Positions 271 through 15,753 of a stretch of 16,709 nucleotides of DNA are shown here, piece by piece. The notes under the pieces are model-generated. The model was not told where the DNA came from and did no database searches. It worked only from the letters and a program-made list of their open reading frames with translations. Every line of letters begins with the position of its first letter. Position 1 is the stretch's first letter. Origin of the DNA: Candidatus Thorarchaeota archaeon (GTDB lineage Archaea > Asgardarchaeota > Thorarchaeia > Thorarchaeales > Thorarchaeaceae); the NCBI GenBank assembly GCA_048882385.1, contig JBHLRQ010000072.1, forward strand, positions 1-16,709, given 5' to 3'. The translations under genes and the position numbers were made by a program.

Positions 271-284
271 GATAATCTTTTATG
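271..284 (+). promoter_or_regulatory. Putative BRE/TATA promoter for rps19e
   Basis: GATAATCTTTTATG. The same TTTATG core lies about 27-32 nt upstream of the tRNA gene (13910-13915). Confidence 0.45.
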
Positions 285-311
285 CGGACTCTAGACGGTG
301 GGTCCAGCCTT

Positions 312-358: not shown

Positions 359-376
359 TGAATTTGGTGACGACAT

Positions 377-829: not shown

Positions 830-847
830 GCCGGGTGACAAGGCTCG

Positions 848-1177
848 ATGAGTGATGATGAACTTGAAGCTATACGCCAACGAAAAGAGGCACAACTTCG
901 AGAGCAGGCACTAAGAGAGCAAGCCAACGAGCAGCAGATAGCTGAGGCTCAAGCACAGAAAGAGGCTCTGTTGAGGCAGATCCTCACACCTGAGGCACGC
1001 GCTCGACTTACTAACATCAGAATGGTTAAACCTCAGTTCGCAGAACAGATTGAGATTCAACTCATTCAACTGGCGGGCTCTGGAAGACTAAGAGAGCGAA
1101 TAACCGATGAACAACTGAAAGGCCTCCTGAAACAACTCCAGGGAAAGGAACGCGAACGGAAAATTTCGTTCAGATAA
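848..1177 (+). CDS. PDCD5/TFAR19-family dsDNA-binding protein
   Basis: Motifs DDELEAIRQRK, LRQILTPEARARLTNIRMVKP and ITDEQLKGLL. Conserved position after rps19e. Confidence 0.95.
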   Translation: MSDDELEAIRQRKEAQLREQALREQANEQQIAEAQAQKEALLRQILTPEARARLTNIRMVKPQFAEQIEIQLIQLAGSGRLRERITDEQLKGLLKQLQGKERERKISFR

Positions 1178-1199
1178 TGGACTGCGATAGGTGAAGAAA

Positions 1200-1355
1200 A
1201 TGGCACGAAACAAGCCACTAGCGAAGAAGCTGAGAATGGCCAAAGCAATGAGAAGTAACTCCTCTGTCCCCACATGGGTCATCGTTAAAACAGGTGGTAG
1301 ACTGAGAAGAACACCTTCGCAGAGGAATTGGCGTCAGTCTAAGCTAAAGCCATAG
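1200..1355 (+). CDS. rpl39e: 50S ribosomal protein L39e (51 aa, absent from the ORF track)
   Basis: Manual translation: MARNKPLAKKLRMAKAMRSNSSVPTWVIVKTGGRLRRTPSQRNWRQSKLKP*. AGGTGA SD upstream, and it directly precedes rpl31e. Confidence 0.96.
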   Translation: MARNKPLAKKLRMAKAMRSNSSVPTWVIVKTGGRLRRTPSQRNWRQSKLKP

Positions 1356-1369
1356 TCAGGTGGGTATAG

Positions 1370-1762
1370 ATGTCTAAGAAGAAAAAGAAAGAACCAAAAG
1401 CTGAGGTTTCTGAAGAGGAACCTGAGATTGAAGAAGCTCCCACCGAAGACACCGAGGTAGTTGAAGCAGTTCCTGAGGAAGTAGAACCAGAAGAGGAAGA
1501 AGAGATTATAGACGAGCGGATTTACACAGTGCCCTTGAGAAAGGCATACTGGACTGGAAGTCGGCTTAGAAGGTCTAACAAAGCAGTCAAGGTTCTACGA
1601 GAATTTGTGGAAAGGCACATGAAACCCGAGGAATTACTTATCCAACCTGAAGTCAATGAACGAATCTGGGCAAGAGGAATTCAAAAGCCACCTAGAAGAG
1701 TGAGGATTCGAGCGACCAAGAACTCAGAAAATCTTGTGCGCGTCTATCTTGCGGAGGGATAG
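1370..1762 (+). CDS. rpl31e: 50S ribosomal protein L31e with acidic N-terminal extension
   Basis: Motifs ERIYTVPLRKA, RSNKAVKVLREFVERHMK and VNERIWARGIQKPPRRVRIR. Confidence 0.97.
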   Translation: MSKKKKKEPKAEVSEEEPEIEEAPTEDTEVVEAVPEEVEPEEEEEIIDERIYTVPLRKAYWTGSRLRRSNKAVKVLREFVERHMKPEELLIQPEVNERIWARGIQKPPRRVRIRATKNSENLVRVYLAEG

Positions 1763-1768
1763 TCCAAA

Positions 1769-2434
1769 ATGATCGCCCGAACCGACTTCGAGGGCGATTC
1801 TAATGTTGGAGCTTACGGAATCGCCACAGACAGTTTTGTATTTACAAGCTCTAATATGTCTGAGAAAGGATTAGACACAATCGAGAGGACTTTCAATTTA
1901 CCTCTCGTTCAGTCAACAATTGCCACACTGGATGCAATAGGGCTAGTATCAGTAGCGACGTCTAATGGCATTCTTGTCCCATACACAACCACTGATGAGG
2001 AACTGGAGCAGATTAAAACTGCTTCAGAAGTGAATGTTGATTGGATTGATGACAAGATGACAGCACTTGGTAATATTATCATTGCAAATGATAATGGAGC
2101 AATGTGTCATCCTGATTTCAATTTCAAGGCAAGACAGAAAATTTCAGACACACTTGGAGTTGAAGTTGTTTCTGGTAGTATTGCTAAACTGCCAATTGTT
2201 GGGGCAAACACTGTGGCAACGAATAGAGGAGCAATTGTGCATCCTCTGGCAACTGCTGGAGAGATAGAACTGCTAGCACAGCTGTTAAAAGTACACGTCG
2301 AGGTCGGAACTGTGAACAGAGGAAGCCCGTACACTAGTCTAGGTGTATTGGCAAATGTCGATGGAATGATTGCAGGGACTGACACAACTGGTGTTGAACT
2401 GGCTCACATAAGCCAAGTCCTGGGATTTGTATGA
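1769..2434 (+). CDS. eif6: Translation initiation factor 6 (aIF6)
   Basis: Motifs FEGDSNVGAY, TALGNIIIANDNGAMCHPD, ATNRGAIVHP, GTVNRGSPY and TTGVEL. Confidence 0.97.
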   Translation: MIARTDFEGDSNVGAYGIATDSFVFTSSNMSEKGLDTIERTFNLPLVQSTIATLDAIGLVSVATSNGILVPYTTTDEELEQIKTASEVNVDWIDDKMTALGNIIIANDNGAMCHPDFNFKARQKISDTLGVEVVSGSIAKLPIVGANTVATNRGAIVHPLATAGEIELLAQLLKVHVEVGTVNRGSPYTSLGVLANVDGMIAGTDTTGVELAHISQVLGFV

Positions 2435-2449
2435 TGAGGTGTAATTTGG

Positions 2450-2689
2450 ATGTCAAAAATCTGGCGTGCAACAGGTGAGTACAAGAAAAAGAAGAGAAGT
2501 TTCTCTTTCACTAGAGAGTTACTTGCTGAGAAGGAATCACATGTCAGGGAGAAGATACTCTCTGAGCTTGGCAGTCGTCATAGAGTGAAACGAAGAGAGA
2601 TTGAGATTAAGGAAATCAAGGAAATAAAACCCGAGGAAGTTCAAAATCTGGATCTCAGAAAAATACTAGGCCTGGAGACGGAGTTCTGA
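2450..2689 (+). CDS. rpl18a: 50S ribosomal protein L18Ae/LX (eL20)
   Basis: Motif EKILSELGSRHRVKRREIEIKEI. Canonical position between eif6 and pfdA. Confidence 0.93.
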   Translation: MSKIWRATGEYKKKKRSFSFTRELLAEKESHVREKILSELGSRHRVKRREIEIKEIKEIKPEEVQNLDLRKILGLETEF

Positions 2690-3138
2690 TGACTGAAGAT
2701 CAGCAGAAGCTGCTTCAAAGAATCTATACCGAACAACAGATGACTGAATCAAATCTTGGTCTGATGCAACAACGTATAGAGGCAATTCAAGTATACCTTA
2801 CAAACTACCGGTCCGGTCTAATGGTTCTTGAGGAAATTGAGAAGAAGGGGGAAGGGGAGGAGTTGTTGATTAATGTTGGTGGAAGCATCTTCGTTGAAGC
2901 CAAGCTTATGAACCCGAATAAAGTGACTCGTGGACTTGGAAGTGGGATTAGAATAGAACAAAGTGTTAAAGATGCAAAGGAAGTAGTTACTGGTGCTGTT
3001 GAGAGTCTTGAGCAGCAATATGAGAAACTGGTGCAGGATTATCAGAAACTTCTACAACGTGCTTCTATTCTCAATGCACAATTTCAACAACTCGCGGCAC
3101 AGATACAGAGTACTCAGTCCCCTGATGAGGAGGAGTAA
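2689..3138 (+). CDS. pfdA: Prefoldin subunit alpha
   Basis: Coiled coils flank ELLINVGGSIFVEAK...KVTRGLGSGIRIEQS. TGATG stop/start overlap with the upstream gene. Confidence 0.93.
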   Translation: MTEDQQKLLQRIYTEQQMTESNLGLMQQRIEAIQVYLTNYRSGLMVLEEIEKKGEGEELLINVGGSIFVEAKLMNPNKVTRGLGSGIRIEQSVKDAKEVVTGAVESLEQQYEKLVQDYQKLLQRASILNAQFQQLAAQIQSTQSPDEEE

Positions 3139-3142
3139 GTGA

Positions 3143-4054
3143 TTGTTCGAAAAGCTCAGAGGAGCTATTGACACTGCCGTCACAAAAGCTACCACCAAGG
3201 AGCTCAATGAAAAGAGTCTTGCTAATGCAGTTTGGGAGCTGCAGATGGTCTTGATTCAGAATGATGTAGCTGTTGAAGTAGCAGAACATATCTGTGATCT
3301 AACAAAAGAGAAACTGCTTGGGACTAGAACAGGAAGACTGGAGAATGTCAGCAAGTTCTTCAAGACTGCAATTCTAGAGTCTGTACTTGAAGTGCTCACA
3401 CCGAAACATCCGGTAGATCCAATTGAATTCGCGGCTGAAAAGAAACAGAAAGGAGAACCTACGACAATCTTGTTTGTAGGAGTCAATGGAACAGGTAAGA
3501 CCACAACACTCGCAAAGATGGCTAGTATCTTTAAACAAAAAGGATTCACTGTGGTCATTGCGGCAGGTGACACATTTCGTGCCGGAAGCATTGAGCAGCT
3601 TGAGAAACACGCTCAGAGACTTGACATACGAGTCATAAAGCAGGACTACGGGTCAGATGCTGCTGCCATAGCGTATGATGCAATTGCGCATGCAAAGGCC
3701 AGACATATTGACATTGTACTTATTGATACTGCTGGAAGAATGCAGAGTAACAAGAACCTACTTGAGGAAATGAAAAAGATAGTTCGCGTCGCACAACCAG
3801 ATTTGAAGATTTTCGTTGGAGATGCGCTTGCTGGAAATGATGCACTTTCTCAAGCAAAGGAGTTTCATAATGCAATAGGTATTGATGGAGCCATCTTGAC
3901 AAAAGTTGATGCAGATCCCTCTGGTGGCGCTGCTCTCTCTATTGCGTATATTACAGGAAGACCTGTGATATATGTGGGAGTAGGCCAGAATTATGGTGAT
4001 CTCAGGAGATTCGATCCTGACTGGTTTGCTCAGAGACTTATTGCTGATAATTGA
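3143..4054 (+). CDS. ftsY: SRP receptor FtsY (NG domain)
   Basis: Motifs GVNGTGKTTT, GDTFRAGS, DTAGR, TKVD and GVGQ. TTG start. Confidence 0.97.
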   Translation: MFEKLRGAIDTAVTKATTKELNEKSLANAVWELQMVLIQNDVAVEVAEHICDLTKEKLLGTRTGRLENVSKFFKTAILESVLEVLTPKHPVDPIEFAAEKKQKGEPTTILFVGVNGTGKTTTLAKMASIFKQKGFTVVIAAGDTFRAGSIEQLEKHAQRLDIRVIKQDYGSDAAAIAYDAIAHAKARHIDIVLIDTAGRMQSNKNLLEEMKKIVRVAQPDLKIFVGDALAGNDALSQAKEFHNAIGIDGAILTKVDADPSGGAALSIAYITGRPVIYVGVGQNYGDLRRFDPDWFAQRLIADN

Positions 4055-4066
4055 ATAAGTGGGCAG

Positions 4067-4076
4067 TTTTTTATAG
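4067..4076 (+). promoter_or_regulatory. T-tract/TATA box between ftsY and argF
   Basis: TTTTTTATAG lies about 46 nt upstream of the argF start. It could act as the ftsY terminator and/or the argF TATA box. Confidence 0.4.
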
Positions 4077-4121
4077 GACTCACCAATGATGGGCGTCTTA
4101 GATAGCTCTGAGGTGTGACTA

Positions 4122-5045
4122 TTGAGCTTGAAAGGTAGAAATTTCGTTGATCTTGCGGACTTTGAAAGGTTCGAGCTTAGACAGTTTTTGGATGCTGGTC
4201 ATGACCTGAAACGAAAACAGAAACGAGGCGAACCTCATGAGGTGCTAAAAGGTAAATCTATGGCAATGATCTTCATGAAATCTTCAACAAGAACGCGTGT
4301 TTCATTCGAGGTAGGGATGACTCAACTGGGAGGTCATGCACTCTTCCTTCAACCAAGTGGCACTCAACTTGGAAGAGGAGAAACAATCGCTGATACTGCT
4401 CAGGTTTTGGGTAGATATTGTGATGTCATTATGGCACGTGTTTTTGGACATGATGAAGTGATTGACCTCGCAAAATACGCGGGTGTGCCTGTAATCAATG
4501 GTTTATCAGATTTACTTCATCCTTGTCAGATAATGGCAGATATGATGACAATTGAGGAGCATAAGGCTAAGCTGGAAGGTTTGAAAATCGCATATGTTGG
4601 GGATTCTAACAACGTCAGTAATTCTATAATGCAGGGCTGCACAATCATGGGAATGGATGTAACTATAGGGTCTCCAAAAGGATACACTCCTTCAGAAGAT
4701 ATGATGAAGAAGGCGACTGCTCTGAGCAAGAGATATGGAACCACCTTGAATGTTGAGAATAATGCTGCTGATGCTGTGAAAGGCGCAGATGTGATCTATA
4801 CTGACACATTCTTCAGTATGGGACAGGAGAAGTCAAAGGAGAAAGAGGAAGCTTTGATGCCATTCCAAGTGAATGATGCTCTTGTTGGAAAAGCAAAGAA
4901 AGATGTCATTGTCATGCACTGTCTACCAGCACACCGTGATGAAGAACTCACATCTAAAGTGATGGATGGACCTCATTCAGTTGTGTTTGATCAGGCTGAG
5001 AACCGCTTGCATGCACAAAAAGGAATCCTTGCTCTCATCGTTTAA
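4122..5045 (+). CDS. argF: Ornithine carbamoyltransferase
   Basis: Motifs STRTR, HPCQ, SMG, HCLP and DQAENRLHAQK. TTG start with GAGGTG SD. Confidence 0.97.
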   Translation: MSLKGRNFVDLADFERFELRQFLDAGHDLKRKQKRGEPHEVLKGKSMAMIFMKSSTRTRVSFEVGMTQLGGHALFLQPSGTQLGRGETIADTAQVLGRYCDVIMARVFGHDEVIDLAKYAGVPVINGLSDLLHPCQIMADMMTIEEHKAKLEGLKIAYVGDSNNVSNSIMQGCTIMGMDVTIGSPKGYTPSEDMMKKATALSKRYGTTLNVENNAADAVKGADVIYTDTFFSMGQEKSKEKEEALMPFQVNDALVGKAKKDVIVMHCLPAHRDEELTSKVMDGPHSVVFDQAENRLHAQKGILALIV

Positions 5046-5057
5046 GAGGCGGATGTC

Positions 5058-6053
5058 TTGTCCGGTGAAATTGTCGCAATTGGCAGAATCAACATTGACA
5101 TCAACATGAGAGTGAGTACACTACCCAAGGCAAATGACCATGTAATTTGCGAAGAGGGGCGAATAGCCTTTGGTGGATCTGCGGCCAATTTCGCAACACA
5201 GAGCGCAAGATTAGGTGTGAAGACCGCTCTCGTGAGTTGTCTAGGTGATGATACCTATGGTCAACTAGCAGCAAAAGCGATTGCAAATGCAGGTGTTGAA
5301 ACTAGTTGTCTTGTGGTTCTAGAGAAACAGTCCACAGGGATTTTCTTTTATGTTCATGATTCAGCAAATGAACGAATTGTAGTTGTTGAACCAGGAGCTA
5401 ATAGGTTCCTCGAAAAACATCTTTTCGAAGAAGACAAGCTAGTCAATGCTCAACTGGTACATGTTGCGGGATCATTTCCAATGATGATAGATCGCGTAAC
5501 AAATGTAACGACTTCAAACGGTATGATAATGTCACTTGATCCAGGAAGAGCGGGAGGAGATCTTGATTATGAGAAGGTGCTTCGTGCAACTGATCTTCTT
5601 TTTGTGAACCAGAGAGAGCTGAAGGAATACTTCAAGATCAACCCAAATGAACGAGCCCTTCGTGCTTTTGCCAAGACATTTCCAGGTGTTATTGTTGTTA
5701 AAATGGGAAAGAGGGGGGCGATTGCTACTGATGGGTTCGAGTATTGTACATCAGAGGTTTTTGAAGTGCCAGTCGTGGACACACTTGGGGCTGGAGATTC
5801 TTTTGCAGCAGGGTTTGTAACAGCTTGGATGAGATCTGAGAGGATTGAACAGGCATTAAATGTTGCAAATGCAGTTGCAGCTCTCACAATTACCAAAGCA
5901 GGAGCACAAAATGGTCAACCAAATCTGGAGGAGGTTGACAAACTTCTTCGAAGACATCAGATTTCCATCGATTCTATCTTAAAGACATTCAGACCCAAAA
6001 CACGAAGAAAACCCAAGGGTAAACCCAAAGGGAAGAAAAAGAGTCGACGCTGA
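5058..6053 (+). CDS. PfkB/ribokinase-family carbohydrate or nucleoside kinase
   Basis: PfkB signatures GGSAAN and VVDTLGAGDSFAAGF, plus NQRE and ANAVAA. Substrate cannot be assigned. Confidence 0.92.
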   Translation: MSGEIVAIGRINIDINMRVSTLPKANDHVICEEGRIAFGGSAANFATQSARLGVKTALVSCLGDDTYGQLAAKAIANAGVETSCLVVLEKQSTGIFFYVHDSANERIVVVEPGANRFLEKHLFEEDKLVNAQLVHVAGSFPMMIDRVTNVTTSNGMIMSLDPGRAGGDLDYEKVLRATDLLFVNQRELKEYFKINPNERALRAFAKTFPGVIVVKMGKRGAIATDGFEYCTSEVFEVPVVDTLGAGDSFAAGFVTAWMRSERIEQALNVANAVAALTITKAGAQNGQPNLEEVDKLLRRHQISIDSILKTFRPKTRRKPKGKPKGKKKSRR

Positions 6054-6084
6054 GGAGTAATACCTGGGTAGTATTCCACTTTTT
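6054..6084 (+). terminator. Possible hairpin + T5 terminator after the pfkB kinase
   Basis: GGAGTA-A-TAC-CTGG-GTA-G-TATTCC is followed by ACTTTTT. Confidence 0.4.
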
Positions 6085-6102
6085 GTTACAACAATACCTG
6101 GG
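6059..6102 (+). repeat. 10-bp direct repeat AATACCTGGG x2 upstream of ftsZ
   Basis: Exact copies at 6059-6068 and 6093-6102. Confidence 0.7.
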
Positions 6103-6132
6103 AAATACATCATCCAGATGTGAGTGGTATAT

Positions 6133-7260
6133 ATGCACCCATTGTTAGAAGAGGTCCTTAAGTCATCAAGCGGAAAACGCGAAACACCAGCAAAGAAAAC
6201 CAAGAAAGTACCAAGATCAGCCACAACTGATGAGGAACTAGCCGAGCTGTTAGAATCTGTGAGCGCTAGAATATTGGTTGTCGGTGTTGGCGGTGCGGGT
6301 AACAACGCGATAACTCGTCTCATGGAAGTAGGTGTAGAGGGAGCTGAAACTCTTGCAGCAAATACAGATGCTCAAGACCTCTACTTTTGTAATTCTCATC
6401 ATAAACTGCTTCTTGGAAAGGAAACCTGCGGAGGTCTGGGTGCAGGAAACGACCCAGATATTGGTGAAGCTGCAGCAATTGAAACATATCCAGATATCAA
6501 AGATGCAGTCGTAGGTGACCTTGTCTTCATTACTGCGGGAATGGGTGGAGGAACTGGAACTGGTGCAGCAGCTCATATCGCAAAGGCAGCAAAAGAGAAT
6601 GGCGCGTTAACTGTAGCCATAGTATGTCTACCATTTGATGTGGAGGGTGCTACAAGGAAGAAGAATGCAACTAGGGGTCTCAATGCGTTGATGGAACATG
6701 TAGACACTCTCATTGCAATACCAAACGAGAAACTTCTGGAGATTGCACCAGACCTCTCAATGCCAGAAGCGTTTATGGTTGCGGATGAAGTACTTGTGCG
6801 AGCTGTAAAGGGAATTGCTGAGCTCATCTCAAAACCAGGTCTTGTCAATCTGGACTTTGCAGACGTTCGTACAACGATGAGGAATGGCGGAGTATCTATC
6901 ATTGCACTTGGTGAGGCAAGAGGAGATGATCGAGCAGAAGAGGCTGTCATCAATGCACTTCGTAATCCACTGATAGATGTATCAATTGAGAATGCTCGAA
7001 ACATTCTCGTGAATGTTAGTGGAAGCGCTGATCTACAATTGCTTGAAGCAAAGCGAGTTGTTGAACTTGTAACTGAGCAGGTCAATCCTGGTGCTGAGGT
7101 CATATATGGTGCTCTCATAGTTCCTGAATTAGAAGATAGACTACGAGTGACAATAATTGCCGCAGGTGTGAGCTCACCATACGTTTTTGATAAGACTGAA
7201 CCCTTCACACCTCTTGTAGAAGACCTGAAGAGCGATTTGGGAATCCCGAAGCTCACGTAG
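6133..7260 (+). CDS. ftsZ: Cell division protein FtsZ (FtsZ1-type by context); start ATG 6133 or GTG 6124
   Basis: Motifs [24 protein letters not shown] and T7 loop GLVNLDFAD. The ftsZ-secE-spt5-rpl11 order is typical of archaeal ftsZ1. Confidence 0.97.
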
Positions 7261-7360
7261 TCAAACTTGGTTAGTCAGCAAATGTTAAAAGTGAACCAAG
7301 ATAGACTGCAACCGACTCCAGTAACTGCTACAGCAGTATAGTACAAGGATGTGAATAGAA

Positions 7361-7543
7361 ATGGGTGTTGGTGAATTCATCAACGAGAGTAGACGAATCC
7401 TGAAACTGGCAACAAAGCCTTCCAGAAAGGAACTTTGGATGAGCACTAGAGTAAGTCTACTGGCTATGATCCTTGTTGGAGCAGTCAGCTTCATAATCCA
7501 GATTATAATGACCCTACTCACAAGTAACTGGGGTGTCTATTAG
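7361..7543 (+). CDS. secE: Protein translocase SecE/Sec61-gamma
   Basis: ESRRILKLATKPSRKEL is followed by one transmembrane helix. It lies between ftsZ and spt5. Confidence 0.95.
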   Translation: MGVGEFINESRRILKLATKPSRKELWMSTRVSLLAMILVGAVSFIIQIIMTLLTSNWGVY

Positions 7544-7589
7544 ACAGCCAATAGGGGCATGAAGCTTCTGACATTTGGAGGGTTCTCTC

Positions 7590-8276
7590 GTGGAAACAAG
7601 TACTAGTATCTATGCAGTGCGTACAACAATTGGACAGGAACGGAGTGTCACTGACCTCATAACAACAGCAGTCATCGGTGAAACTGATGTGTGGCAATGT
7701 CCTTTTTGTTCAGAGGATTTCTCGTCCGAAAAAGCCACACTAGATCACATGAAGAGTTGTAAAAAGAAGAAAAAGAAGGGAGAACCACAACTAGTTTCCA
7801 CAAACCAACTCATCGGACGGGTCAAAGCTATTCTGGTTCCTGAAACACTTAGGGGTTATGTGTTCATTGAAACCACGGAATTCAGGGACGTTGAGATTGC
7901 TATCTCTGGTGTTCCTCATGTACGTGGTCGTGTGGGCGGTAAAGTTAGTCTTGCAGAGATTGACAGGTTCCTAGCACCTCCACCTGCTGCAGAGGGTATT
8001 TCGGAGGATGATGTTGTCGAGATCATCTCAGGTCCCTTCAAAGGTGAACGTGCAAAGGTTGTTCGAGTAGATGCAGGTAAAGAAGAGCTCATTCTTGAAC
8101 TTCTGGATAGTCCGTACACAATACCAGTTAGAGTTCATGCCGATTTCGCAAAGATTGTCGAGAGAGCTGCAAAGAAAGAAGAACCAGTTGATGAGGAAGA
8201 AGATAAAGAACTCGAGATTGATGAAGACGAGTTCGATGAAGAGGACTCGTTCTGGGCTCATGAACCTGAAGATTAG
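7590..8276 (+). CDS. spt5: Transcription elongation factor Spt5 (NGN + KOW) with zinc-finger insertion and acidic tail
   Basis: NGN motifs IYAVRTTIGQE and LRGYVFIE, KOW motif VEIISGPFKGERAKVVRVD. GTG 7590 is preferred over TTG 7575 because GGAGG lies at 7577-7581. Confidence 0.95.
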   Translation: METSTSIYAVRTTIGQERSVTDLITTAVIGETDVWQCPFCSEDFSSEKATLDHMKSCKKKKKKGEPQLVSTNQLIGRVKAILVPETLRGYVFIETTEFRDVEIAISGVPHVRGRVGGKVSLAEIDRFLAPPPAAEGISEDDVVEIISGPFKGERAKVVRVDAGKEELILELLDSPYTIPVRVHADFAKIVERAAKKEEPVDEEEDKELEIDEDEFDEEDSFWAHEPED

Positions 8277-8340
8277 ATTGATTGCTGCGTCGTAATCCTT
8301 AAAACAAGAACTCACCCGAGCCAGTCTATCCTCTTAATCT

Positions 8341-8365
8341 GACATAGACGCACAGACGTCATGTC
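8341..8365 (+). promoter_or_regulatory. Stem-loop in the putative rpl11 operon leader
   Basis: GACAT-A-GACG-CACAGA-CGTC-ATGTC (9 bp, one bulge). It lies downstream of a TATA-like CTTAAAA near 8298-8304. Confidence 0.45.
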
Positions 8366-8495
8366 CGGGGTGAAGAAAAGTGACAAAGAATGCAGTAGAC
8401 CTAGCTGGACGTATGAAGAATTCTGTCTTGCAGGTCGACAACATCAGAAGCGTTGCGTACGCCCTGTATTTACTGCATCAGGAGTCGTGTTAGAA

Positions 8496-8996
8496 TTGAG
8501 CGAGAGACCAGTAATAGTAGAAGCGATGGTTGAAGGTGGAAAGGCTAGTGGAGGACCACCAATTGGCCCTGCACTCGGTCCCACAGGTGTAAACATCTTT
8601 CAAGTTGTAACAAAAATCAATGAAGTCACACAGGCATTCTCAGGATTGAAAGTTCCTGTGACAATAATTGTTAATCCAAATGACAAAAGCTTTGAGGTGG
8701 AGGTAGGTACTCCACCAACAAGTGCTTTGATACTGAAAGAGGTTGGAGCTGAAAAAGGATCAGGAGAACCTAATTCAAAAATGATTGGTAACCTCACTCT
8801 AGATCAATTGAAGACAATCGCTAAAGGTAAGGCAGATGACCTCTCAGCCCAGACCATGAAATCAGCTGCCATGATAATATCAGGTACCTGTGGTCAAATG
8901 GGTGTGACAATTGAGGGAAAAACAGCAAAGGAGTTCCAGGCAGAAATCCGAGAAGGCACATGGGACGCTCAGCTTGACGAACCTCTCAGGGAGTGA
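8496..8996 (+). CDS. rpl11: 50S ribosomal protein L11 (uL11)
   Basis: Motifs VEGGKASGGPPIGPALGP, GLKVPV, VGTPPTSALI and GTCGQMGV. The start is reassigned from 8361 to TTG 8496, where homology begins and AGGAG lies at 8480-8484. Confidence 0.95.
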   Translation: MSERPVIVEAMVEGGKASGGPPIGPALGPTGVNIFQVVTKINEVTQAFSGLKVPVTIIVNPNDKSFEVEVGTPPTSALILKEVGAEKGSGEPNSKMIGNLTLDQLKTIAKGKADDLSAQTMKSAAMIISGTCGQMGVTIEGKTAKEFQAEIREGTWDAQLDEPLRE

Positions 8997-9002
8997 TAGT
9001 AA

Positions 9003-9659
9003 ATGTCATTTAGCGTAGAATCTATTGAGGCAGCAGTTGCGGCGGCGAGAGCTGAGGGGAAGAAAAGGAAAATCAAGTTCGAGCAAAGCTTTGATTTAGC
9101 AGTCAACTTCAGAAAGAAAGAACTTGATGTTACAAAACCTGAGAATAGACTCAACCAAGAGCTAGTGCTTCCTAACGCATTGTATCCACCGCCTAAGATA
9201 TGTGCATTTGGAGATGGAGAGTTCGCAGAGAAAGCTACAGAGGCAGGAGCTGAACGCGTCATCCCTAAGGACGATATTCCAAAGATCGGTGAAGAGAAGA
9301 AGGAGAGAAAGTCATTAGCTAAAAGCTTTGAGTTCTTCATTGCAGCAGTTGATGCGATGCCATTGATTGGTCGATACCTTGGACAAACCTTAGGTTCGAG
9401 AGGAAAAATGCCTAGACCATTTCCACCACAAGCCGATCTCAGCGCGATAGTCAATCAGTACCATCGGACGGTTCGTGTCAGAATGAGAAACACGCCCACA
9501 TTTCATGTGAAAGTGGGTCATTTCAAAATGAGTGATAGAGAGATAGCGGATAACGTGGTTGCTGTGCTCAACTTCGTGGAGAGCAAAGGCTTCTCTGAGA
9601 GAGTTAGTAGTGTCAAGGTCAAAACAACCATGGGACCAGCAATTGAGGTGTCTGCTTAG
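9003..9659 (+). CDS. rpl1: 50S ribosomal protein L1 (uL1)
   Basis: Motifs FEQSFDLAVNF, LGQTLGSRGKMP and KTTMGPA. Confidence 0.97.
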   Translation: MSFSVESIEAAVAAARAEGKKRKIKFEQSFDLAVNFRKKELDVTKPENRLNQELVLPNALYPPPKICAFGDGEFAEKATEAGAERVIPKDDIPKIGEEKKERKSLAKSFEFFIAAVDAMPLIGRYLGQTLGSRGKMPRPFPPQADLSAIVNQYHRTVRVRMRNTPTFHVKVGHFKMSDREIADNVVAVLNFVESKGFSERVSSVKVKTTMGPAIEVSA

Positions 9660-9674
9660 GATTGGTGATTATTG

Positions 9675-10697
9675 ATGTCTGTATATGAGAAGAAAATTCC
9701 ACAATGGAAACAAGACGCAGTGGATGCTCTAACCTCAACCATTAACGAAGCCAAAATGATTGGTCTTGTCAATGTCGAAGGTGTCGGAGCTAAACAGCTC
9801 CAAGGAATTCGTGAGAGCCTGCGAGGTTCTGCAGTCATTAAAATGGCACGCAACACTCTGATGATTAGAGCTCTTGAGAAATGCAACAAAAAGGGAATCA
9901 GTGACCTAATTGAGCATGTCACAGGTCCGGTTTCTTTTGTCTTTAGTGATCAGGACCCATTTGCACTTAGCAAATTCCTTAGTGAGAACAAGACTGCAGC
10001 CCCTGCAAAAGGAGGCCAGATTGCACCAAACGATATCATCATTCCAGAGATGAACACTGGTGTAGCTCCTGGACCGTTCATTAGTGAACTTGCGGGTCTC
10101 AAGATTCCATCACGCGTTAAAGGAGGTGTAATCCACATTACTGCTGATACTGTGGCAGTCAAGGCTGGGGATGTCATCTCAAACGCTATGGCATTAATGC
10201 TCTCAAGGCTGGGTATTGAGCCCATGGAACTGCAGCTCAAACTTATTGCAGCATACAGTGATGGTGAAGTACTCACTGCGGACTCATTCGAAATTGACCT
10301 TGAAGGACTATTCAATCAGGTCATTGCTGGTCACCAGTACGCAATCAATCTCTCAGTGAATGCGGGAATCCCAACCACAGAATCAATTCCACTCATAATT
10401 GTTAAGGCCAATAATCAGGCCAAAAGTCTGGCACTGAAAATAGGTTTCTTTGAACCAGACTTGGTTGAAGCATTTTTGGGAAAGGCCAACTCAGAGGCAC
10501 ATGCACTGATTACAGCAGTCGCTGAGAAGGATCCCGAAGCAATACCTTCCGAGTTAGTAAACCAGGTTCAGACCGCTGCTACGGCAGCATCAACAGCGGC
10601 TGCACCCGCCACAGACGCGGCTGAGCAGCAAGAATCTGAAGAAGACGAGGAAGAGGAAGAAGAAGCCGTGGCAGGCATCGGAGGCCTGTTCGGTTAA
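9675..10697 (+). CDS. rpl10: 50S ribosomal protein L10/P0 (uL10); start ATG 9675 or TTG 9672
   Basis: Motifs IPQWK, QLQGIRESLRG, MARNTLM and APAKGGQIAP. Ala-rich hinge and acidic tail ending GIGGLFG. Confidence 0.97.
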   Translation: MSVYEKKIPQWKQDAVDALTSTINEAKMIGLVNVEGVGAKQLQGIRESLRGSAVIKMARNTLMIRALEKCNKKGISDLIEHVTGPVSFVFSDQDPFALSKFLSENKTAAPAKGGQIAPNDIIIPEMNTGVAPGPFISELAGLKIPSRVKGGVIHITADTVAVKAGDVISNAMALMLSRLGIEPMELQLKLIAAYSDGEVLTADSFEIDLEGLFNQVIAGHQYAINLSVNAGIPTTESIPLIIVKANNQAKSLALKIGFFEPDLVEAFLGKANSEAHALITAVAEKDPEAIPSELVNQVQTAATAASTAAAPATDAAEQQESEEDEEEEEEAVAGIGGLFG

Positions 10698-10718
10698 GAA
10701 CAACAAGAGGTAATATCA

Positions 10719-11024
10719 ATGGAGTACGTATACGCAGCACTTCTGCTCCACAAGGCGGGTCAGAAACTCACAGCAAAGGCAATGGAAGCGACTCTAACCG
10801 CAGCAGGTGTAGAGCCTGATAAGGGAAGAGTCAAGGCACTTTTAGCAGCCCTCAAAGATGTCGATATCGATGAGGCTCTCAGGAGCGCCGCAGCCATGCC
10901 AGTAGCAGCTGCTCCAGCAGCCGCTGGTGGTGCAGCTCCCGCTGAGGAAAAGAAGGAAGAAAAGAAAGAGGAAGAAGAGAAGGAAGAAGAAGAGGTCGCT
11001 GGACTCGGTAGCCTCTTCGGTTAG
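10719..11024 (+). CDS. rpl12: Ribosomal stalk protein P1/L12
   Basis: [11 protein letters not shown], Ala hinge, and acidic tail ending GLGSLFG. Confidence 0.98.
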
Positions 11025-11069
11025 TTGGGTCAGTAATTGTCCCCTCCAGACCATTCCTCTAATATAAGA

Positions 11070-11118
11070 GGGCGGATGGGTCGCGAGCTCGTCTGCCCGC
11101 TAAATCCTTTTTCTTTCT
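11070..11118 (+). terminator. GC-rich hairpin + pyrimidine tract ending the r-protein operon
   Basis: GGGCGGATGGG/CTCGTCTGCCC forms 11 bp including G-U pairs (11070-11098). TTTTTCTTTCT follows at 11108-11118. Confidence 0.6.
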
Positions 11119-11164
11119 GAACCAACCCACACACACAAATCCTACTTTTAGCTGAGAATATCTT

Positions 11165-11947
11165 GTGAAAATTGTATATCATCCCTTGATGCAGGAGCAT
11201 TATGATAGGACTCCTGCAGGAGCAGCAGGTAGACTCGATACATCTGTAGAGATATTGGGAAGTCACCCAGACTATGAGTTTGTTGAAGCAAGACCAGCAA
11301 CTGAGGAGGAGATCCTTCGGGCTCATGGTACTCGTACATTGGAATCAGTAAAACATGACTATGACTCAACCAGATCTGGTCTACTCTACAGGATGGCTAC
11401 TTTAGCTGCAGGAGGTGCCATTCAGACAGCAGAGATTGCAGTCCAAGGGGAGCCAGCTTTTGGTTTAATACGACCTCCAGGGCATCATGCATCTTTTGAT
11501 TCGTATTGGGGATTCTGCTATTTCAACAACATCGCAGTGTCATTGCTCCACCTCAGATCAAAGGGGCTTATTGAATCAGCGTACATTCTTGATTTCGACC
11601 TTCATACAGGTGATGGAAATATCAACATCTTGGGAAATGACCCGAAGTTCATCATCCATAACCCAAGTGGAAATGGCGATGTACAGTATCTGAGAGATGT
11701 GAAACAGTCCATGGACTCTGCTCCTGATGTGGATATCATAGTTGCATCAGCTGGATTTGATCAATACGAAGAGGACTGGGGAGGTAATCTCTCTACAAAT
11801 GCTTTCAACAAGATGGGCAAGATGATGAAGGACTTTGCTGATGAAAGATGTGAAGGACGTCGATATGGACTTCTAGAGGGTGGTTACAACTTTGAGGACC
11901 TTGGGAAAAATGTTCTTGCATTCTGTGACGGATTAAGAGGTGCTTAG
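11165..11947 (+). CDS. Zn-dependent histone deacetylase/AcuC/AphA-family protein
   Basis: Motifs RPPGHHA, GFCYFNN, DFDLHTGDG, SAGFD and LEGGY. GTG start. Confidence 0.93.
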   Translation: MKIVYHPLMQEHYDRTPAGAAGRLDTSVEILGSHPDYEFVEARPATEEEILRAHGTRTLESVKHDYDSTRSGLLYRMATLAAGGAIQTAEIAVQGEPAFGLIRPPGHHASFDSYWGFCYFNNIAVSLLHLRSKGLIESAYILDFDLHTGDGNINILGNDPKFIIHNPSGNGDVQYLRDVKQSMDSAPDVDIIVASAGFDQYEEDWGGNLSTNAFNKMGKMMKDFADERCEGRRYGLLEGGYNFEDLGKNVLAFCDGLRGA

Positions 11948-11949
11948 CC

Positions 11950-12405
11950 ATGGTGTATGAATTACTCAAAGATGCTGTTCGGCGGCATCTCGACGAAACA
12001 ATGCCCTTGATAGAGCAACTTAGGGATGTTGATATCATGAGTAAACCTATCTCCGAAGGGAGGGAAATAGGCGAGGTTGTTCTTCATCTAATACGATCAT
12101 TAGAGTATTATATGCGAGGGATTGTCGAGTCTTTTTGGGAACCTCTTCCTTATACACTTGAAACATACAACTCGTCGGAAGCAATTATCCAGCTTGCTGA
12201 TCAGGTGTTCAAAAGAGTGAGTGAATACATGTATTTTGTCCGTTTGGTCAATTTCAACGAGAGAATTGATTCTTTCAACCGACCTGCAACTATCGCTGAG
12301 ATAATCTTGGAGATGATTGAGCATAGCATCCATCATCGAGGACAACTCACTGTGTACTATAGGCTGCTAGGAATCACACCTGAGCAAATTTCCTACATTA
12401 TCTAA
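11950..12405 (+). CDS. DinB/YfiT-family protein
   Basis: N-terminal REIGEVVLHL and C-terminal EHSIHHRGQLTVYYRLLG supply the metal-binding His triad. Confidence 0.88.
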   Translation: MVYELLKDAVRRHLDETMPLIEQLRDVDIMSKPISEGREIGEVVLHLIRSLEYYMRGIVESFWEPLPYTLETYNSSEAIIQLADQVFKRVSEYMYFVRLVNFNERIDSFNRPATIAEIILEMIEHSIHHRGQLTVYYRLLGITPEQISYII

Positions 12406-12436
12406 GAAAGAAAGAGTTTGGGAGAACCTCCCAAAT
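12403..12436 (-). terminator. Hairpin between convergent genes with a minus-strand pyrimidine tract
   Basis: TTTGGGAG-AAC-CTCCCAAA is a perfect 8-bp stem (12417-12435). On the minus strand it is followed by CTCTTTCTTTCTT. Confidence 0.6.
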
Positions 12437-12754
12437 CTATTTTGGTAAATCCTTGAAAACTCGGTCAATTGCCTTCCGATAATCGTCGAATGCTTTTCGA
12501 CCGCCTGAAGTCAATTTTAGTATGGTTCGAGGCTTTTTGTTCAAGAACTCTTTCTGGACCTCAACATATCCTGATTCTTCAAGTTTACTCAGATGAGAGG
12601 AGAGATTTCCCCATGTGAATCCAAGTTGATTGAGAAGGAATGTGAAATCAGCAGATTCTACAACATAGAGTTGGGCCATTATTCTCAATCTTGATGGTTC
12701 ATGAATAACCCTGTCAATTTCTCCTTCTGAATTCGGATCATTGGTCTTGTTCAT
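12437..12754 (-). CDS. Winged-helix transcriptional regulator (ArsR/MarR-like, HTH_34 type); start ATG 12754 or GTG 12757
   Basis: Motifs IDRVIHEPSRLRIM, TWGNLSSHLSKLEESGYVEVQK and KPRTILKLTSGGRKAF. GGAGG SD. It overlaps the end of the upstream gene. Confidence 0.92.
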   Translation of the reverse strand: MNKTNDPNSEGEIDRVIHEPSRLRIMAQLYVVESADFTFLLNQLGFTWGNLSSHLSKLEESGYVEVQKEFLNKKPRTILKLTSGGRKAFDDYRKAIDRVFKDLPK

Positions 12755-13370
12755 CACTCACGTCCTCCAAATCGAGGATTGGATATTTCTTCACAAACCG
12801 GACCAAACTTGTTAGTCCAGCTAGGAAGAAGATTGCACCTACAAAAGCCAAGTATAGAGTCATTCTATACACAGGAGTAGGGAAATCTAGCAGAGTGAAT
12901 GCTAGTCCAGCGATAGTAGCAAAAGCTCCAATACCATAGTATCTCTTGAGGTTTGACTTCTCAACTAAGTATAATGTTGGTTGAATTAGACCAATCCCTA
13001 TTAGCACTGGTGACCATTGGGCCAATAGGAAGAGTAGGTCGTTCTCAATTCTCGTTGAAAAAACAACTGACGCGATAGCTGGAATCATGATGACAATGGC
13101 AAATATCCATCCATATCCTGTTGGCATTTCAGCTTCGCCACGAAGCTTTACCTTGCCAATCCTTGGATAGGTGAACCTTTCTTTCACTTTTTCAGTTAAA
13201 ACAGCCTGAAATATGATGAGAAGTGCAACTGTGCCAACAAAAGCTGTCTGTATCAGTACTAGTGCTATTGCCGTTATCATCAAGCCCATCCATATCTCAG
13301 TTAGCCCGTCTTGATTCGCTATTCTGAAGGTTGCCTGTTCCAGTTTTACTAAATCAATATCTTCGTTCAT
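12738..13370 (-). CDS. Hypothetical multi-pass membrane protein (about 210 aa, about 6 TM)
   Basis: Several hydrophobic segments, plus DGLTEI and KERFTYPRIGKVK. The start is moved to ATG 13370 because the 13445 extension runs through the TATA/operator region. Confidence 0.8.
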   Translation of the reverse strand: MNEDIDLVKLEQATFRIANQDGLTEIWMGLMITAIALVLIQTAFVGTVALLIIFQAVLTEKVKERFTYPRIGKVKLRGEAEMPTGYGWIFAIVIMIPAIASVVFSTRIENDLLFLLAQWSPVLIGIGLIQPTLYLVEKSNLKRYYGIGAFATIAGLAFTLLDFPTPVYRMTLYLAFVGAIFFLAGLTSLVRFVKKYPILDLEDVSDEQDQ

Positions 13371-13388
13371 CGTAATTGTCAACTTCGT

Positions 13389-13428
13389 AAAGTTCTTTGC
13401 GATGCAAAGTACTTTGTAATAATATAAA
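13389..13428 (-). promoter_or_regulatory. TATA box plus palindromic operator for the membrane protein/wHTH operon
   Basis: Minus-strand TTTATATT at 13428-13421. The 27-bp inverted repeat AAAGTtCTTTGC-gat-GCAAAGtACTTT spans 13389-13415. Confidence 0.7.
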
Positions 13429-13471
13429 GCTTCGTTCCCAAGCAATATTAGTAGTAAATTGATTTCAGGAG

Positions 13472-13478
13472 TTTATAT
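13472..13478 (+). promoter_or_regulatory. TATA box for the small membrane protein gene
   Basis: TTTATAT ends about 26 nt before ATG 13505, consistent with a leaderless or short-leader transcript. Confidence 0.45.
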
Positions 13479-13504
13479 GGCGCAGTAAGAATAGAATTAC
13501 AGGT

Positions 13505-13762
13505 ATGGCGATGTTACTGTACCACATGCTCAGTCCACTGTCCGACTTTGTGGCGTTGATTGCCGCATACTTTGCGGAGATTTGGGAGTTCCTGATCTTT
13601 ATTGGGAATATCTCAGCAGTGATAGTCGTTCTAGTCGGTGCGATACTTTGGTTCACAGATGTGAACACCGGGAGAGGAAAGGGGTTAGTCCTTAGTGGCA
13701 TACTCCTTGCTGTGGTAGTTCAGTACTTCGTGATATACCCACCAGCCTTTGTAATGAGCTAG
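13505..13762 (+). CDS. Small hydrophobic protein, TrbC/VirB2 pilin-like helical hairpin
   Basis: Two long hydrophobic helices are joined by WFTDVNTGRGKG. It has its own TATA box. The family assignment is by pattern only. Confidence 0.7.
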   Translation: MAMLLYHMLSPLSDFVALIAAYFAEIWEFLIFIGNISAVIVVLVGAILWFTDVNTGRGKGLVLSGILLAVVVQYFVIYPPAFVMS

Positions 13763-13901
13763 GTATTTGATATGACTAGGGGAATGCAAGATTTGACTCC
13801 TTTATGATTAACACCCAGTACATACTCTGGACTGGTTTCACACACACCCACTCGCCCGGGGTTCTTCTCTGAATCTCGGGCACCAACTTCTCAGGACCAA
13901 T

Positions 13902-13916
13902 CGGAAAGCTTTATGA
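13902..13916 (+). promoter_or_regulatory. BRE/TATA promoter of tRNA-Arg
   Basis: CGGAAAGC-TTTATGA, with the TATA box about 27-32 nt upstream of the mature tRNA 5' end. Confidence 0.6.
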
Positions 13917-13941
13917 CCCTAAACCATTGACGCTGGGTGCA

Positions 13942-14019
13942 GGGCCCGTTGCCTAGCCCGGATAGGGCGCCAGCCTTCTAAGTTGGAGTTCGTGAGTTCA
14001 AATCTCACCGGGCCCGCCA
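13942..14019 (+). tRNA. tRNA-Arg(TCT), intronless, CCA encoded
   Basis: Acceptor stem GGGCCCG/CGGGCCC, anticodon arm CCAGC-CTTCTAA-GTTGG, T arm GTGAG-TTCAAAT-CTCAC, discriminator G followed by CCA. Confidence 0.97.
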
Positions 14020-14031
14020 TTTATTCTCAGG

Positions 14032-15753
14032 TCAATCAAAACTCAGGGTTCTAGAAAGCCAATCAGGAAGATCAATTTCCAATGTTACCTCTAGCTTTGC
14101 TATATCGTTGATTGGACCAACTGATTTGATTCTAGCAGCACGTTTTGCACCTATACCAGGAACAGATTTCCATTGGGTCAGTGATGCTTTTTGAACAACA
14201 AAGGGATAAGGAAGAACAGTGAGCGAACGTGGTCCGTGATCAACAACGAAGACATCCTTTGGAACGATATCAGCTCCCTTAGGCATATGACATAGAAGGG
14301 GGTATGTTCCAAGAGGTCTCAGAAGAAGGCTATTACCAATTTGACCATCTACATAGACAGATTTGACAACGGTACCAAGTGGGGCAACTCGTTTAATCAT
14401 TTCAATATCTATGGTATCGCGAATCATCTGTTTATGTTTGAAAAACTGATTTCTCTTGATTCTCGTTCCATAGTTCTGATTTACCCCAGTTCCAGGCAGA
14501 CCTATCACTTGGCGAACATTAATTCTACGGACGAGCAGACCCTCATTGAGTAGCTGATTTAGAAAATTCATATTGTGGCTCAATGTCTTCTTTGATTCTC
14601 CAGGAAGACCATAGAGTAGGTTTATGCCAGGCAGAAGGTGCGGGAGCCCCCATGGTTCACGAGCTCCACCCACCTCATTCAACAACCTAACTGCTGCTAT
14701 CACCTCTTCTACATCTGCCTTCAGGTTATTTCTGCGAATAACCTCTGGATCTGTGGATTCAACACCAAAAGCAGCAACATCACCTGGAGTGTGATATTTC
14801 ATGATAGATTTGGCTACTTCTTTTGATTCTTGGGGATGCCGCGCAAGAGTTCCAGGATTGACATTATCAATATGTAGTACTTCTAGAGCAGGGGCACCGT
14901 TTCTTATCTTTGCGAACAGGTCATCAACCGCTTTTGGACTGGGAGTAGGAAACTCAAGCTCACCCATCTCACGAGACCCATACGTGAAAAGATCAGCTTG
15001 ATGGCCAATGCGAAATGCACGGACTCCTTGTTCATATAGGGCATGAATCTCTCCCGCAATTGCATTTGCATCACGTTGTTGTGGAGGACCATAAGAAGGC
15101 TCTATACAGAAAGTACAACCTCCAGAGATAAATCTTGGACATCCACGATACGACTCTATCTCACAGATGATATGACCCTTTGAAAAACCTGGAAATTGAT
15201 TAACAATTGGAACTCCCCGTTTGATAAAATCTTCAATCTCTTCTGAAGTTTTCCGAGTCAGGTTAAGATCTACGGATTCAAAATCATTGTCATGCTTGAG
15301 AGCTTCAGCAATCACAAGCTCCGGGTCCCCACGAACGATGTGGTCGAAGGGAGGTGAGAGAATATCAGCACTCAGAGCAAGTTTTCCTCCCTCAAGGCCA
15401 CAACCAAATCGTGCCCATGGACCGATGAGTACTTTTGGAATGTCCTCAAGTTCTGGGATTGAGAATAACTCATGTGCCTCTCTGACCGAGATTGGTGTGC
15501 CACCAATATATTTCCCAGGTACTATCATTCCTGCTATGAGAATAATGAGATCTGTCTTAGACCAGATTTCTTGTGCTCTCTGAAAGCTTTCACGAACTTG
15601 ATCAATCGTTATGTATAGGACTTCCGTTTTTGGAAACTGGGTCCAGATTGCACCTGCAACATAGCGAGGGTAGATACTGACATAGGGCGGAACACCGAGG
15701 CATGTTGGCTCATCAACATACCCGTCGACAAGGGCGACTCGTTCCACGTGCAT
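14032..15753 (-). CDS. Radical SAM protein with C-terminal helix-hairpin-helix (COG1031-like)
   Basis: N-terminal DGYVDEPTCLGVPPY, cluster motif RGCPRFISGGCTFC, LHIDNVNP, FGVES and HhH motif VPGIGAKRA. ATG 15753 has AGGTG 6 nt upstream; the alternative start is GTG 15762. Confidence 0.88.
   Translation of the reverse strand: MHVERVALVDGYVDEPTCLGVPPYVSIYPRYVAGAIWTQFPKTEVLYITIDQVRESFQRAQEIWSKTDLIILIAGMIVPGKYIGGTPISVREAHELFSIPELEDIPKVLIGPWARFGCGLEGGKLALSADILSPPFDHIVRGDPELVIAEALKHDNDFESVDLNLTRKTSEEIEDFIKRGVPIVNQFPGFSKGHIICEIESYRGCPRFISGGCTFCIEPSYGPPQQRDANAIAGEIHALYEQGVRAFRIGHQADLFTYGSREMGELEFPTPSPKAVDDLFAKIRNGAPALEVLHIDNVNPGTLARHPQESKEVAKSIMKYHTPGDVAAFGVESTDPEVIRRNNLKADVEEVIAAVRLLNEVGGAREPWGLPHLLPGINLLYGLPGESKKTLSHNMNFLNQLLNEGLLVRRINVRQVIGLPGTGVNQNYGTRIKRNQFFKHKQMIRDTIDIEMIKRVAPLGTVVKSVYVDGQIGNSLLLRPLGTYPLLCHMPKGADIVPKDVFVVDHGPRSLTVLPYPFVVQKASLTQWKSVPGIGAKRAARIKSVGPINDIAKLEVTLEIDLPDWLSRTLSFD

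Follow-up and report, generated by a model that had tools for sequence, protein, structure and literature searches.

An inserted, predicted C2HC zinc finger in the NGN domain of Spt5 from a Thorarchaeota-type family of Asgard archaea

The stretch of DNA that we have analysed here, referred to as the window, comprises 16,709 nucleotides of a Candidatus Thorarchaeota archaeon (assembly GCA_048882385.1, contig JBHLRQ010000072.1, positions 1 to 16,709 of the forward strand) and contains the gene of the elongation factor Spt5, located between the genes of SecE (7361-7543) and of ribosomal protein L11 (8361-8996), i.e. in the gene order secE-spt5-L11. The subject of our analysis is a segment of approximately 42 residues that interrupts the NGN domain of this Spt5 and that is predicted to be a zinc finger with three cysteines and one histidine as ligands (C2HC). 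Two numberings of the protein are in use: the 233-amino-acid (233-aa) numbering begins at an in-frame TTG codon at 7575, while the 228-aa numbering begins at the GTG codon at 7590. The latter is the likelier start of the gene, because a near-identical database protein has 228 residues and congeners have an ATG at the equivalent position. The parts of the gene, as far as the end of the KOW motif, are the following:

7590..8276, forward strand: Spt5 gene, 228 aa from GTG 7590; TIGR00405, Pfam NGN and KOW
7605..7676, forward strand: NGN strand β1 and helix α1, upstream of the insert; AlphaFold2 strand 6-12 and helix 17-30 (228-aa numbering), aligned with residues 2-22 of Methanocaldococcus jannaschii Spt5
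7677..7802, forward strand: insert of about 42 residues in the α1-β2 loop (G35-T76, 233-aa numbering), from alignments and an insert profile
7692..7760, forward strand: predicted C2HC zinc-finger core, W40-C62, from conservation, AlphaFold2 and the ratio of non-synonymous to synonymous substitution rates (dN/dS)
7761..7781, forward strand: Lys-rich linker KKKKKKG, with a net linker charge of +5 here
7782..7802, forward strand: EPxLVSx segment, predicted extra β-strand, from conservation and AlphaFold2 (strand 67-70; strand 42-45 with the insert alone)
7803..7985, forward strand: remaining NGN (β2, β3, α2, β4, α3), Pfam NGN stretch 74-133
8007..8084, forward strand: KOW motif, PF00467 at residues 145-170, 32.6 bits

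The open reading frame (ORF) at 7590-8276 is the housekeeping Spt5 of a Thorarchaeota-type Asgard family, with all Spt5 hallmarks kept. The Spt5 equivalog model TIGR00405 matches the frame 7575/7590-8276 (+) with 141.1 bits (cut-off of 69.95), the Spt5-NGN family PF03439 matches with 61.4 bits (gathering score of 22.4), its match being broken into two stretches by the insert, and the KOW score listed above compares with a gathering score of 22.3; the Spt4-pairing strand VKAIL and the invariant Glu are located within 7803..7985, and the clamp-binding GY-V-F-IE strand is conserved as well. The gene is single-copy, being the sole Spt5 match in the window's genome, with one match per genome in the rest of the family, and the database matches to which NCBI gives a name are called "Candidatus Thorarchaeota archaeon".

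The insert consists of the finger, the linker and the extra strand. The codons of the four putative ligands are located at 7698-7700 (C42), 7707-7709 (C45), 7746-7748 (H58) and 7758-7760 (C62), in the 233-aa numbering, which gives the spacing C-x2-C-x12-H-x3-C with a Phe four positions after C45; the core aromatic residues of the finger are W40 and F49, and the six Lys codons of the linker (K63-K68) occupy 7761-7778. A preliminary description of the window, made from its sequence, had drawn attention to this segment, and its translation of the reading frame, its quoted sequence, its placing of the ligands at 7698-7760 and its Phe four positions after the second Cys have all proved exact.

We have aligned 43 Spt5 genes of the family (the window's own and 42 others) with 20 Spt5 genes from 18 other Asgard families, including the single sister family of the same order. 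The length between the flanking anchors is 57-61 residues in the 43 family sequences and 15-17 residues in the other 20; relative to the solved Spt5 of M. jannaschii (PDB ID:4zn1), residues 7-27 of the query correspond to 2-22 and residues 78-192 to 30-144 (228-aa numbering), leaving approximately 43 extra residues. These sequence comparisons establish the segment as a true insertion, located in the α1-β2 loop of NGN, and the roughly 40 additional residues that the preliminary description had seen within NGN are thereby confirmed. Its picture of the canonical archaeal Spt5 as a bare NGN and KOW protein with a short loop holds for the solved archaeal structures and for the 20 other Asgard sequences, but not throughout the archaea: five of the ten archaeal Spt5 representatives that have been read (proteins P0125, P0150, P0158, P0204 and P0208) carry Cys-free, unrelated insertions of approximately 35-150 residues at this same loop. 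The α1-β2 loop of NGN therefore appears, from these sequences, to be a recurrent site of lineage-specific insertions, with the zinc finger as the solution of one lineage.

The insert is real, is fixed in the window's family of the Genome Taxonomy Database (GTDB), and has not been found elsewhere in the searches made. Among 201 Asgard genomes, the Spt5 match spans the insert in all 43 family genomes, and outside the family it begins at approximately residue 75-85 among the matches listed. The insert profile (A2), built from the 43 rows and searched over 400 Asgard genomes, is matched at full length, with E-values of at most 2e-22, in 83 of the 85 other family genomes and in the window's own (84/86). 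The two missing cases are assembly gaps: in one genome, no Spt5 was found, and in the other, Spt5 is split over two contig ends, with the insert region falling in the missing stretch between them. In the 314 Asgard genomes outside the family, no full match of the profile occurs, and just 20 weak partial matches (E-values from 6e-5 to 1e-3) are located in reading frames other than Spt5. A search with the whole Spt5 among 1.84 billion protein representatives gave 529 matches at E ≤ 0.001, and only two of the 150 listed, one of them a fragment and both from the same lineage, cover the insert; a search with the insert alone gave 127 candidates, and the 120 listed are all NGN-bearing, of Spt5 length and from the same lineage, those with a name being Thorarchaeota or Promethearchaeota.

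The residues of the predicted metal site are strongly conserved (all 84 inserts have been read for the ligand counts, and the finer residue counts come from the 43-row alignment). The pattern C-x2-C-x12-H is kept in 84/84 inserts, in agreement with the earlier designation as a C2HC finger of classical spacing; the fourth ligand is a Cys four positions after the His in 80 inserts, a Cys five positions after it in one, and a Glu at the fourth position in three, so that the Cys/His residues, whose lack of conservation had been named as a ground for rejecting the finger, are found as C, C and H in every insert and as the fourth Cys in 81/84. The finger of the genus with Glu (genus g2) is otherwise intact, and its sequence may represent a site of the C2H-Glu type, one completed by water, or a finger on the way to losing its metal. 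The Pro after the first Cys and the Phe four positions after the second are invariant (43/43 each), the aromatic residue two positions before the first Cys is Trp in 41/43 and Tyr in 2/43, and the position of the classical Leu before the His is occupied by Thr (39/43), Ala (3/43) or Val (1/43). The most conserved non-ligand residues of the insert are E, D, W, E, T and M, together with the EPxLVSxNxL strand; the longer segment EPxLVSxNxLxGR is near-invariant across the 43 sequences, as are P, L and S of EPxLVSx.

The strength of selection on each part has been estimated by pairwise Nei-Gojobori comparisons (17-31 pairs per region, with whole-gene dS between 0.1 and 1.5), with the following dN/dS values:

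Finger core: 0.075
Linker: 0.13
Extra strand: 0.063
NGN and KOW cores: 0.006-0.014 (0.010 for 7803..7985)
Acidic C-terminal tail: 0.16

The insert is under purifying selection, looser than that on the ancient Spt5 core, and we are highly confident that it is a real, selected finger module. The stretch of Lys that the preliminary description had noted after the finger is present in the window, but it is not conserved: the net charge of the linker ranges from +6 to -3 over the 16 genera, with a mean of at least +3 in eight of them.

The AlphaFold2 model of the whole Spt5, made from a 105-row alignment, has a mean predicted local distance difference test score (pLDDT) of 85.8, with values of 86-96 across the ten-residue blocks of the insert, and it contains in the insert a strand at 34-36, a short bridge at 43-44, a helix at 47-56 and a strand at 67-70 (228-aa numbering); the insert modelled alone shows the same elements, with a mean pLDDT of 79.1. 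According to these models, the insert is predicted to be a β-β-α finger of the classical C2H2 kind, with C2HC ligands and with a third strand that closes the small sheet. Among the sequence families, PF13894 matches all 43 inserts at E ≤ 1 (the best at 3.9e-5), the insert of the window scoring 20.8 bits, under the gathering score of 27; single fingers often score below the gathering cut-offs of Pfam. The C2HC family PF17772, of the MYST type, matches 37/43 inserts at E ≤ 1. In the PDB, the insert profile finds its matches among classical C2H2 fingers; the best single-finger ones have E-values of approximately 0.07 (INSM1) and 0.14 (B-129, from an archaeal virus), and its large whole-chain scores stem from multi-finger proteins.

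The structure search that had been proposed for the insert has given neighbours that are mainly zinc fingers (Tramtrack, the C2HC finger of MYST/MOZ, and AFV1p06), none of them significant. With the insert model, Foldseek gives no match at E ≤ 0.001, the best being a Tramtrack finger at 0.63, and VIA-align, over 48,161 chains, gives none with Z ≥ 5, the best being AFV1p06 at Z 3.6 (rmsd of 2.8 Å over 41 aligned residues, within the noise range); structure 6ba4 superposes with an rmsd of 0.7 Å over 25 columns, at a non-significant E-value of 1.3. A search of the ESM Atlas with residues 30-75 returned no usable match. The fold class of the modelled insert is consistent with a zinc finger, and no specific relative can be named. 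In the comparison of the whole protein with the PDB by phmmer, matches to TAL-effector repeat proteins have been set aside as composition artefacts with no significant single stretch.

The only other match of the insert profile in the window's genome (E-value of 0.002; G000:C15:16968-17051 (-)) is a second finger, which has the same C-x2-C-x12-H-x3-C spacing followed by a basic tail and is located at the N-terminus of a 163-aa protein (locus L069, 1108-1599 (-)). Beyond the finger, this protein consists of a Zc3h12a-like NYN ribonuclease domain (PF11977, 52 bits), and weak matches of the insert profile also occur in reading frames of 162-163 aa in several other Asgard genomes. On the strength of these sequence matches, the finger of the NYN ribonuclease as the duplication donor of the insert is a lead, not evidence of a donor.

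The zinc of the Spt4/5 complex had been assigned in the preliminary description to Spt4 (C4 type), with the retention of spt4 as a point to be checked. The gene of Spt4 is located elsewhere in the window's genome, adjoining a Rpo7-like gene, and it keeps both CxxC pairs, i.e. all four Cys; Spt4 is also found in 43 of the 45 other family genomes searched for it, and both missing cases are 74% complete. A Spt4 reading-frame pattern that requires four Cys is found at 22/31 loci, a count that presupposes the Cys and does not measure their conservation, the Spt4 of the window's genome being the one that has been read independently of it. The gene of Elf1 is present in the window's genome too, and the idea of the insert as a substitute for Spt4 or Elf1 has been rejected, both genes being retained. 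The Spt4 proteins of the family have a conserved loop, ILPG-x5-EDPR-x3-SY, located between the zinc ribbon and the C-terminal strands (L001 758-958 (-), L071-L098).

Spt4, two zinc ions and residues 1-135 of Spt5 have been modelled as a complex, with a score of 0.71 for the Spt4-Spt5 pair and 0.00 for the best control; this mark is attained by 116 of 157 solved complexes and by 2 of 215 mismatched pairs. At least 93% of the contacts are shared between the runs, and the pLDDT of the partner is at least 84. The good score may reflect the memory of solved structures by the model, Spt4/5 being a textbook pair. The confident Spt4 contacts are the canonical ones, namely helix α1 (17-29), β2 (75-85), Glu94 and residues 121-129; residues 30-74, which take in the insert, are absent from this list, an absence that is not evidence of no contact. 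Spt4 is thus predicted to pair still with β2 and α1, through the canonical interface and with no confident contact to the insert. Since the contacts occur at the end of α1 and the start of β2, the modelled insert would exit and re-enter NGN exactly at the Spt4 seam. In the available part of PMC3094117, Spt4 is described as pointing away from the polymerase, with the upstream DNA and the non-template strand following the positive surface of Spt4/5, and an interaction of Spt4 with upstream DNA is given as possible in the available part of PMC7289017. From this position at the seam, and from an Spt4 that faces outward from the polymerase next to the upstream DNA, we infer that the finger would be exposed on the outside of the elongation complex, on its upstream-DNA side.

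The closest known proteins are the solved archaeal Spt5 of M. jannaschii (PDB ID:4zn1 and 3lpe), Pyrococcus furiosus (3p8b and 3qqc) and Thermococcus kodakarensis (9bct), which likewise have NGN and one KOW in the same gene neighbourhood and share with the Spt5 of the window the Spt4-pairing strand, the invariant Glu and the Tyr of the clamp-binding strand (phmmer E-values from 4e-28 to 2e-26; Foldseek E-values, with the model of the whole Spt5, from 1e-15 to 3e-13). The spacing between α1 and β2, however, is approximately 7 residues in the solved proteins and approximately 50 in that of the window, and the solved proteins end right after KOW, whereas the window's Spt5 adds an acidic tail of 36 residues. 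The bacterial NusG domain II (Aquifex aeolicus 1m1g and 1npp, Thermotoga maritima 2xhc), which is among the Foldseek matches, is likewise a lineage-specific domain inside NGN, but it is much larger, bacterial, devoid of a zinc finger and without Spt4, and we take it to be located in a different NGN loop. The insert shares with classical C2H2 fingers and C2HC variants (MYST/MOZ, B-129 and AFV1p06) the pattern C-x2-C-x12-H-x3-[C/H], the aromatic residue two positions before the first Cys, the Phe four positions after the second and the predicted β-β-α fold; it differs from them by its last ligand, a Cys (Glu in one genus), by Thr in place of the core Leu, and by being a single finger that is embedded in another domain and followed by a third strand. 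Spt4 and Elf1 are likewise small zinc modules beside NGN on the elongation complex, and charged tails of Elf1 and proposed DNA contacts are described in the available part of PMC7289017; unlike the insert, both are separate C4 zinc-ribbon proteins, and both are still encoded. The insertion in Spt6 of metazoans and choanoflagellates that is known as SID is, as far as the available text of PMC13289920 describes it, likewise a predicted C2HC finger of approximately 50 residues in a domain of an elongation factor, independently acquired and clade-restricted; it differs in the protein (Spt6), the host domain (S1) and the kingdom, and the likeness implies no homology.

We propose that the insert is a self-contained mini-domain in the α1-β2 loop of NGN in the Thorarchaeota-type Spt5, where the finger, if stabilised by zinc, would act as a rigid spacer facing outward, on the side of the upstream DNA, and the basic tether that follows would provide an additional hold, electrostatic and non-specific, on DNA (upstream or non-template) or on nascent RNA; such an accessory contact by finger and tether would reinforce the clamp function of Spt4/5. 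We hold this explanation as a whole, including its favoured nucleic-acid partner, tentatively, at somewhat less than an even chance, and nucleic acid as the partner of the insert is, taken by itself, about as tentative. In its favour, the Lys-rich tether (at least +3 in 8/16 genera) suggests an added electrostatic contact with nucleic acid, and the finger closest to the insert within this genome, which has the same spacing and a basic tail, forms the N-terminus of a NYN ribonuclease of the Zc3h12a type. The preliminary description had inferred a DNA/RNA- or protein-binding module; the nucleic-acid part of this is plausible by way of the basic linker, but it is not implied by the sequence, because the core of the predicted finger has a net charge that is neutral to acidic (-6 to +2).

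Several further observations weigh against this proposal. The linker is the sole clearly nucleic-acid-like feature, yet by its dN/dS it is the least conserved part of the insert, with an acidic net charge (-3) in genus g4 and a near-neutral one (-1 to +1) in five others; the helix positions that read the bases in DNA-binding C2H2 fingers are here S, K, A and D, and vary among the genera; a lone finger seldom suffices for binding to nucleic acid; all three members of genus g2 (genomes G005, G204 and G207; loci L057, L103 and L104) have Glu as the fourth ligand, in the sequence HMKKE; and the placement of the finger rests on the topology of the loop and on literature statements. The charge of the finger core, the acidic or hydrophobic nature of the best-conserved non-ligand residues of the insert (E, D, W, E, T and M), and the conserved EPxLVSxNxL strand speak for a knob for protein docking. 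On the outer face of the elongation complex, this knob would recruit a lineage-specific partner or be held in place by one, e.g. a subunit of the polymerase, a factor of termination or RNA processing, or a chromatin protein. The MYST-type C2HC fingers that are among the nearest neighbours (PF17772 in 37/43 inserts, and 6ba4, non-significant) and the parallel of the electronegative C2HC finger in the S1 domain of metazoan Spt6, an unlikely RNA binder in the available text of PMC13289920, also speak for docking; the complex model shows no confident contact with Spt4, and docking would leave the Lys-rich tether of most genera unexplained, so that we regard it as possible, if on the unlikely side.

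A purely structural role, in which the insert, as a cap stapled by zinc, would stabilise either the fold of NGN or its seam with Spt4 and have no external partner, agrees with the predicted order of the whole insert (block pLDDT of 86-96), with its emergence between two elements that touch Spt4 (the end of α1 and the start of β2), and with the tolerance of the same loop for unrelated insertions in other archaeal Spt5. Selection at a dN/dS of 0.075 and near-invariant surface-type residues over 16 genera exceed what a passive cap needs, however, and the Spt5 of the sister family, like every solved Spt5, is stable in the absence of the insert, which makes this role unlikely in our view. The UBZ-like, ubiquitin-binding type of finger, which the preliminary description had named among the modules with this spacing, has the same C2HC ligands and, in UBZ4, the same CPxC start that is present in 43/43 inserts; an SLX4 chain matches the insert profile (E-value of 0.0086), and the UBZ of Rad18 (Z 2.2) and the finger of NDP52 (Z 2.1) appear in the structural search, both within the noise range. 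Classical C2H2 fingers nevertheless outscore any UBZ on the insert profile, with SLX4 ranking below many of them, and ubiquitin (PF00240), which is found in 139 of the 201 Asgard genomes searched (the search covering PF00240 and not other ubiquitin-like folds), has no match in any of the 43 other family genomes, in the window's own, 95%-complete genome or in the single genome of the sister family; a ubiquitin-binding finger is very improbable, because no ubiquitin gene (PF00240) has been found in these 44 family genomes. As for a neutral passenger or an artefact of annotation or assembly, we consider this rejected for practical purposes: the insert is in frame in 84 independently assembled genomes (84/86 of the family) and in 127 protein clusters from several sources, which rules out the assembly artefact that had been raised as a possible objection, and purifying selection acts on it in what is each genome's sole copy of Spt5.

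Spt5/NusG is the only transcription factor that is conserved in all cellular life, and NGN is usually treated as its invariant core. The Spt5 with an inserted zinc finger is, in our view, a genuine new variant of Spt5: the segment had been put forward as a candidate for something undescribed, and our search of the literature has found no description of a zinc finger in archaeal Spt5, nor does the available text of a survey of 218 Asgard proteomes (PMC13289920), supplements and Zenodo files apart, mention one. Judged by analogy, the closest parallel is the C2HC insertion in metazoan Spt6 that is described in the same text, an independent one. A whole Asgard family (16 genera, 84 genomes read) runs on an Spt5 whose NGN carries a selected finger module, and the insert offers a compact, defined handle on extra contacts of the archaeal elongation complex on the upstream-DNA side; the finding alone gives no link to a eukaryotic feature.

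Beyond the KOW motif, the gene encodes one further feature:

8166..8273, forward strand: acidic C-terminal tail, net charge of -17, 36 residues, with a conserved DSFWAH motif at 8244-8261

An acidic tail with [SG]FW is present in all 43 aligned family Spt5 (L003-L064), and it may be a peptide motif for a basic partner. Zinc finger, basic tether and acidic DSFW tail could together make the Spt5 of Thorarchaeota a two-handed adaptor, an idea that we consider a long shot; the accompanying suggestion that the acidic-aromatic peptide captures a basic partner, e.g. archaeal histones or a ribosomal or termination factor, is just as improbable. If true, such an adaptor would be an independent prokaryotic invention of extensions that handle chromatin or partners, whose counterparts in eukaryotic Spt5 are the acidic N-terminus and the C-terminal region (CTR), and it would be directly testable in a lineage near the eukaryotic stem. 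A masking of the linker by the tail within the same molecule has been rejected: the charges of the two covary with a rho of -0.36 over the 43 sequences and of -0.02 (p 0.95) over the 16 genus means. Other Asgard families have long acidic tails that end in DEWAKF (families f9 and f24) or DIFSEFF (family f27).

Next to Spt5, the reading frame of L11 has approximately 50 residues between its first ATG and the Pfam L11 N-terminal domain, which begins at residue 54; this stretch holds several Cys, and either the true start is located downstream or the protein has an N-terminal extension. The gene cluster of the window comprises S19e, a COG2118-type dsDNA-binding protein, L31e, eIF6, prefoldin, FtsY, a carbamoyltransferase, a PfkB kinase, FtsZ, SecE, Spt5, L11, L1, L10 and L12, an arrangement that is the one given for Asgard genomes in the available part of PMC10833476.

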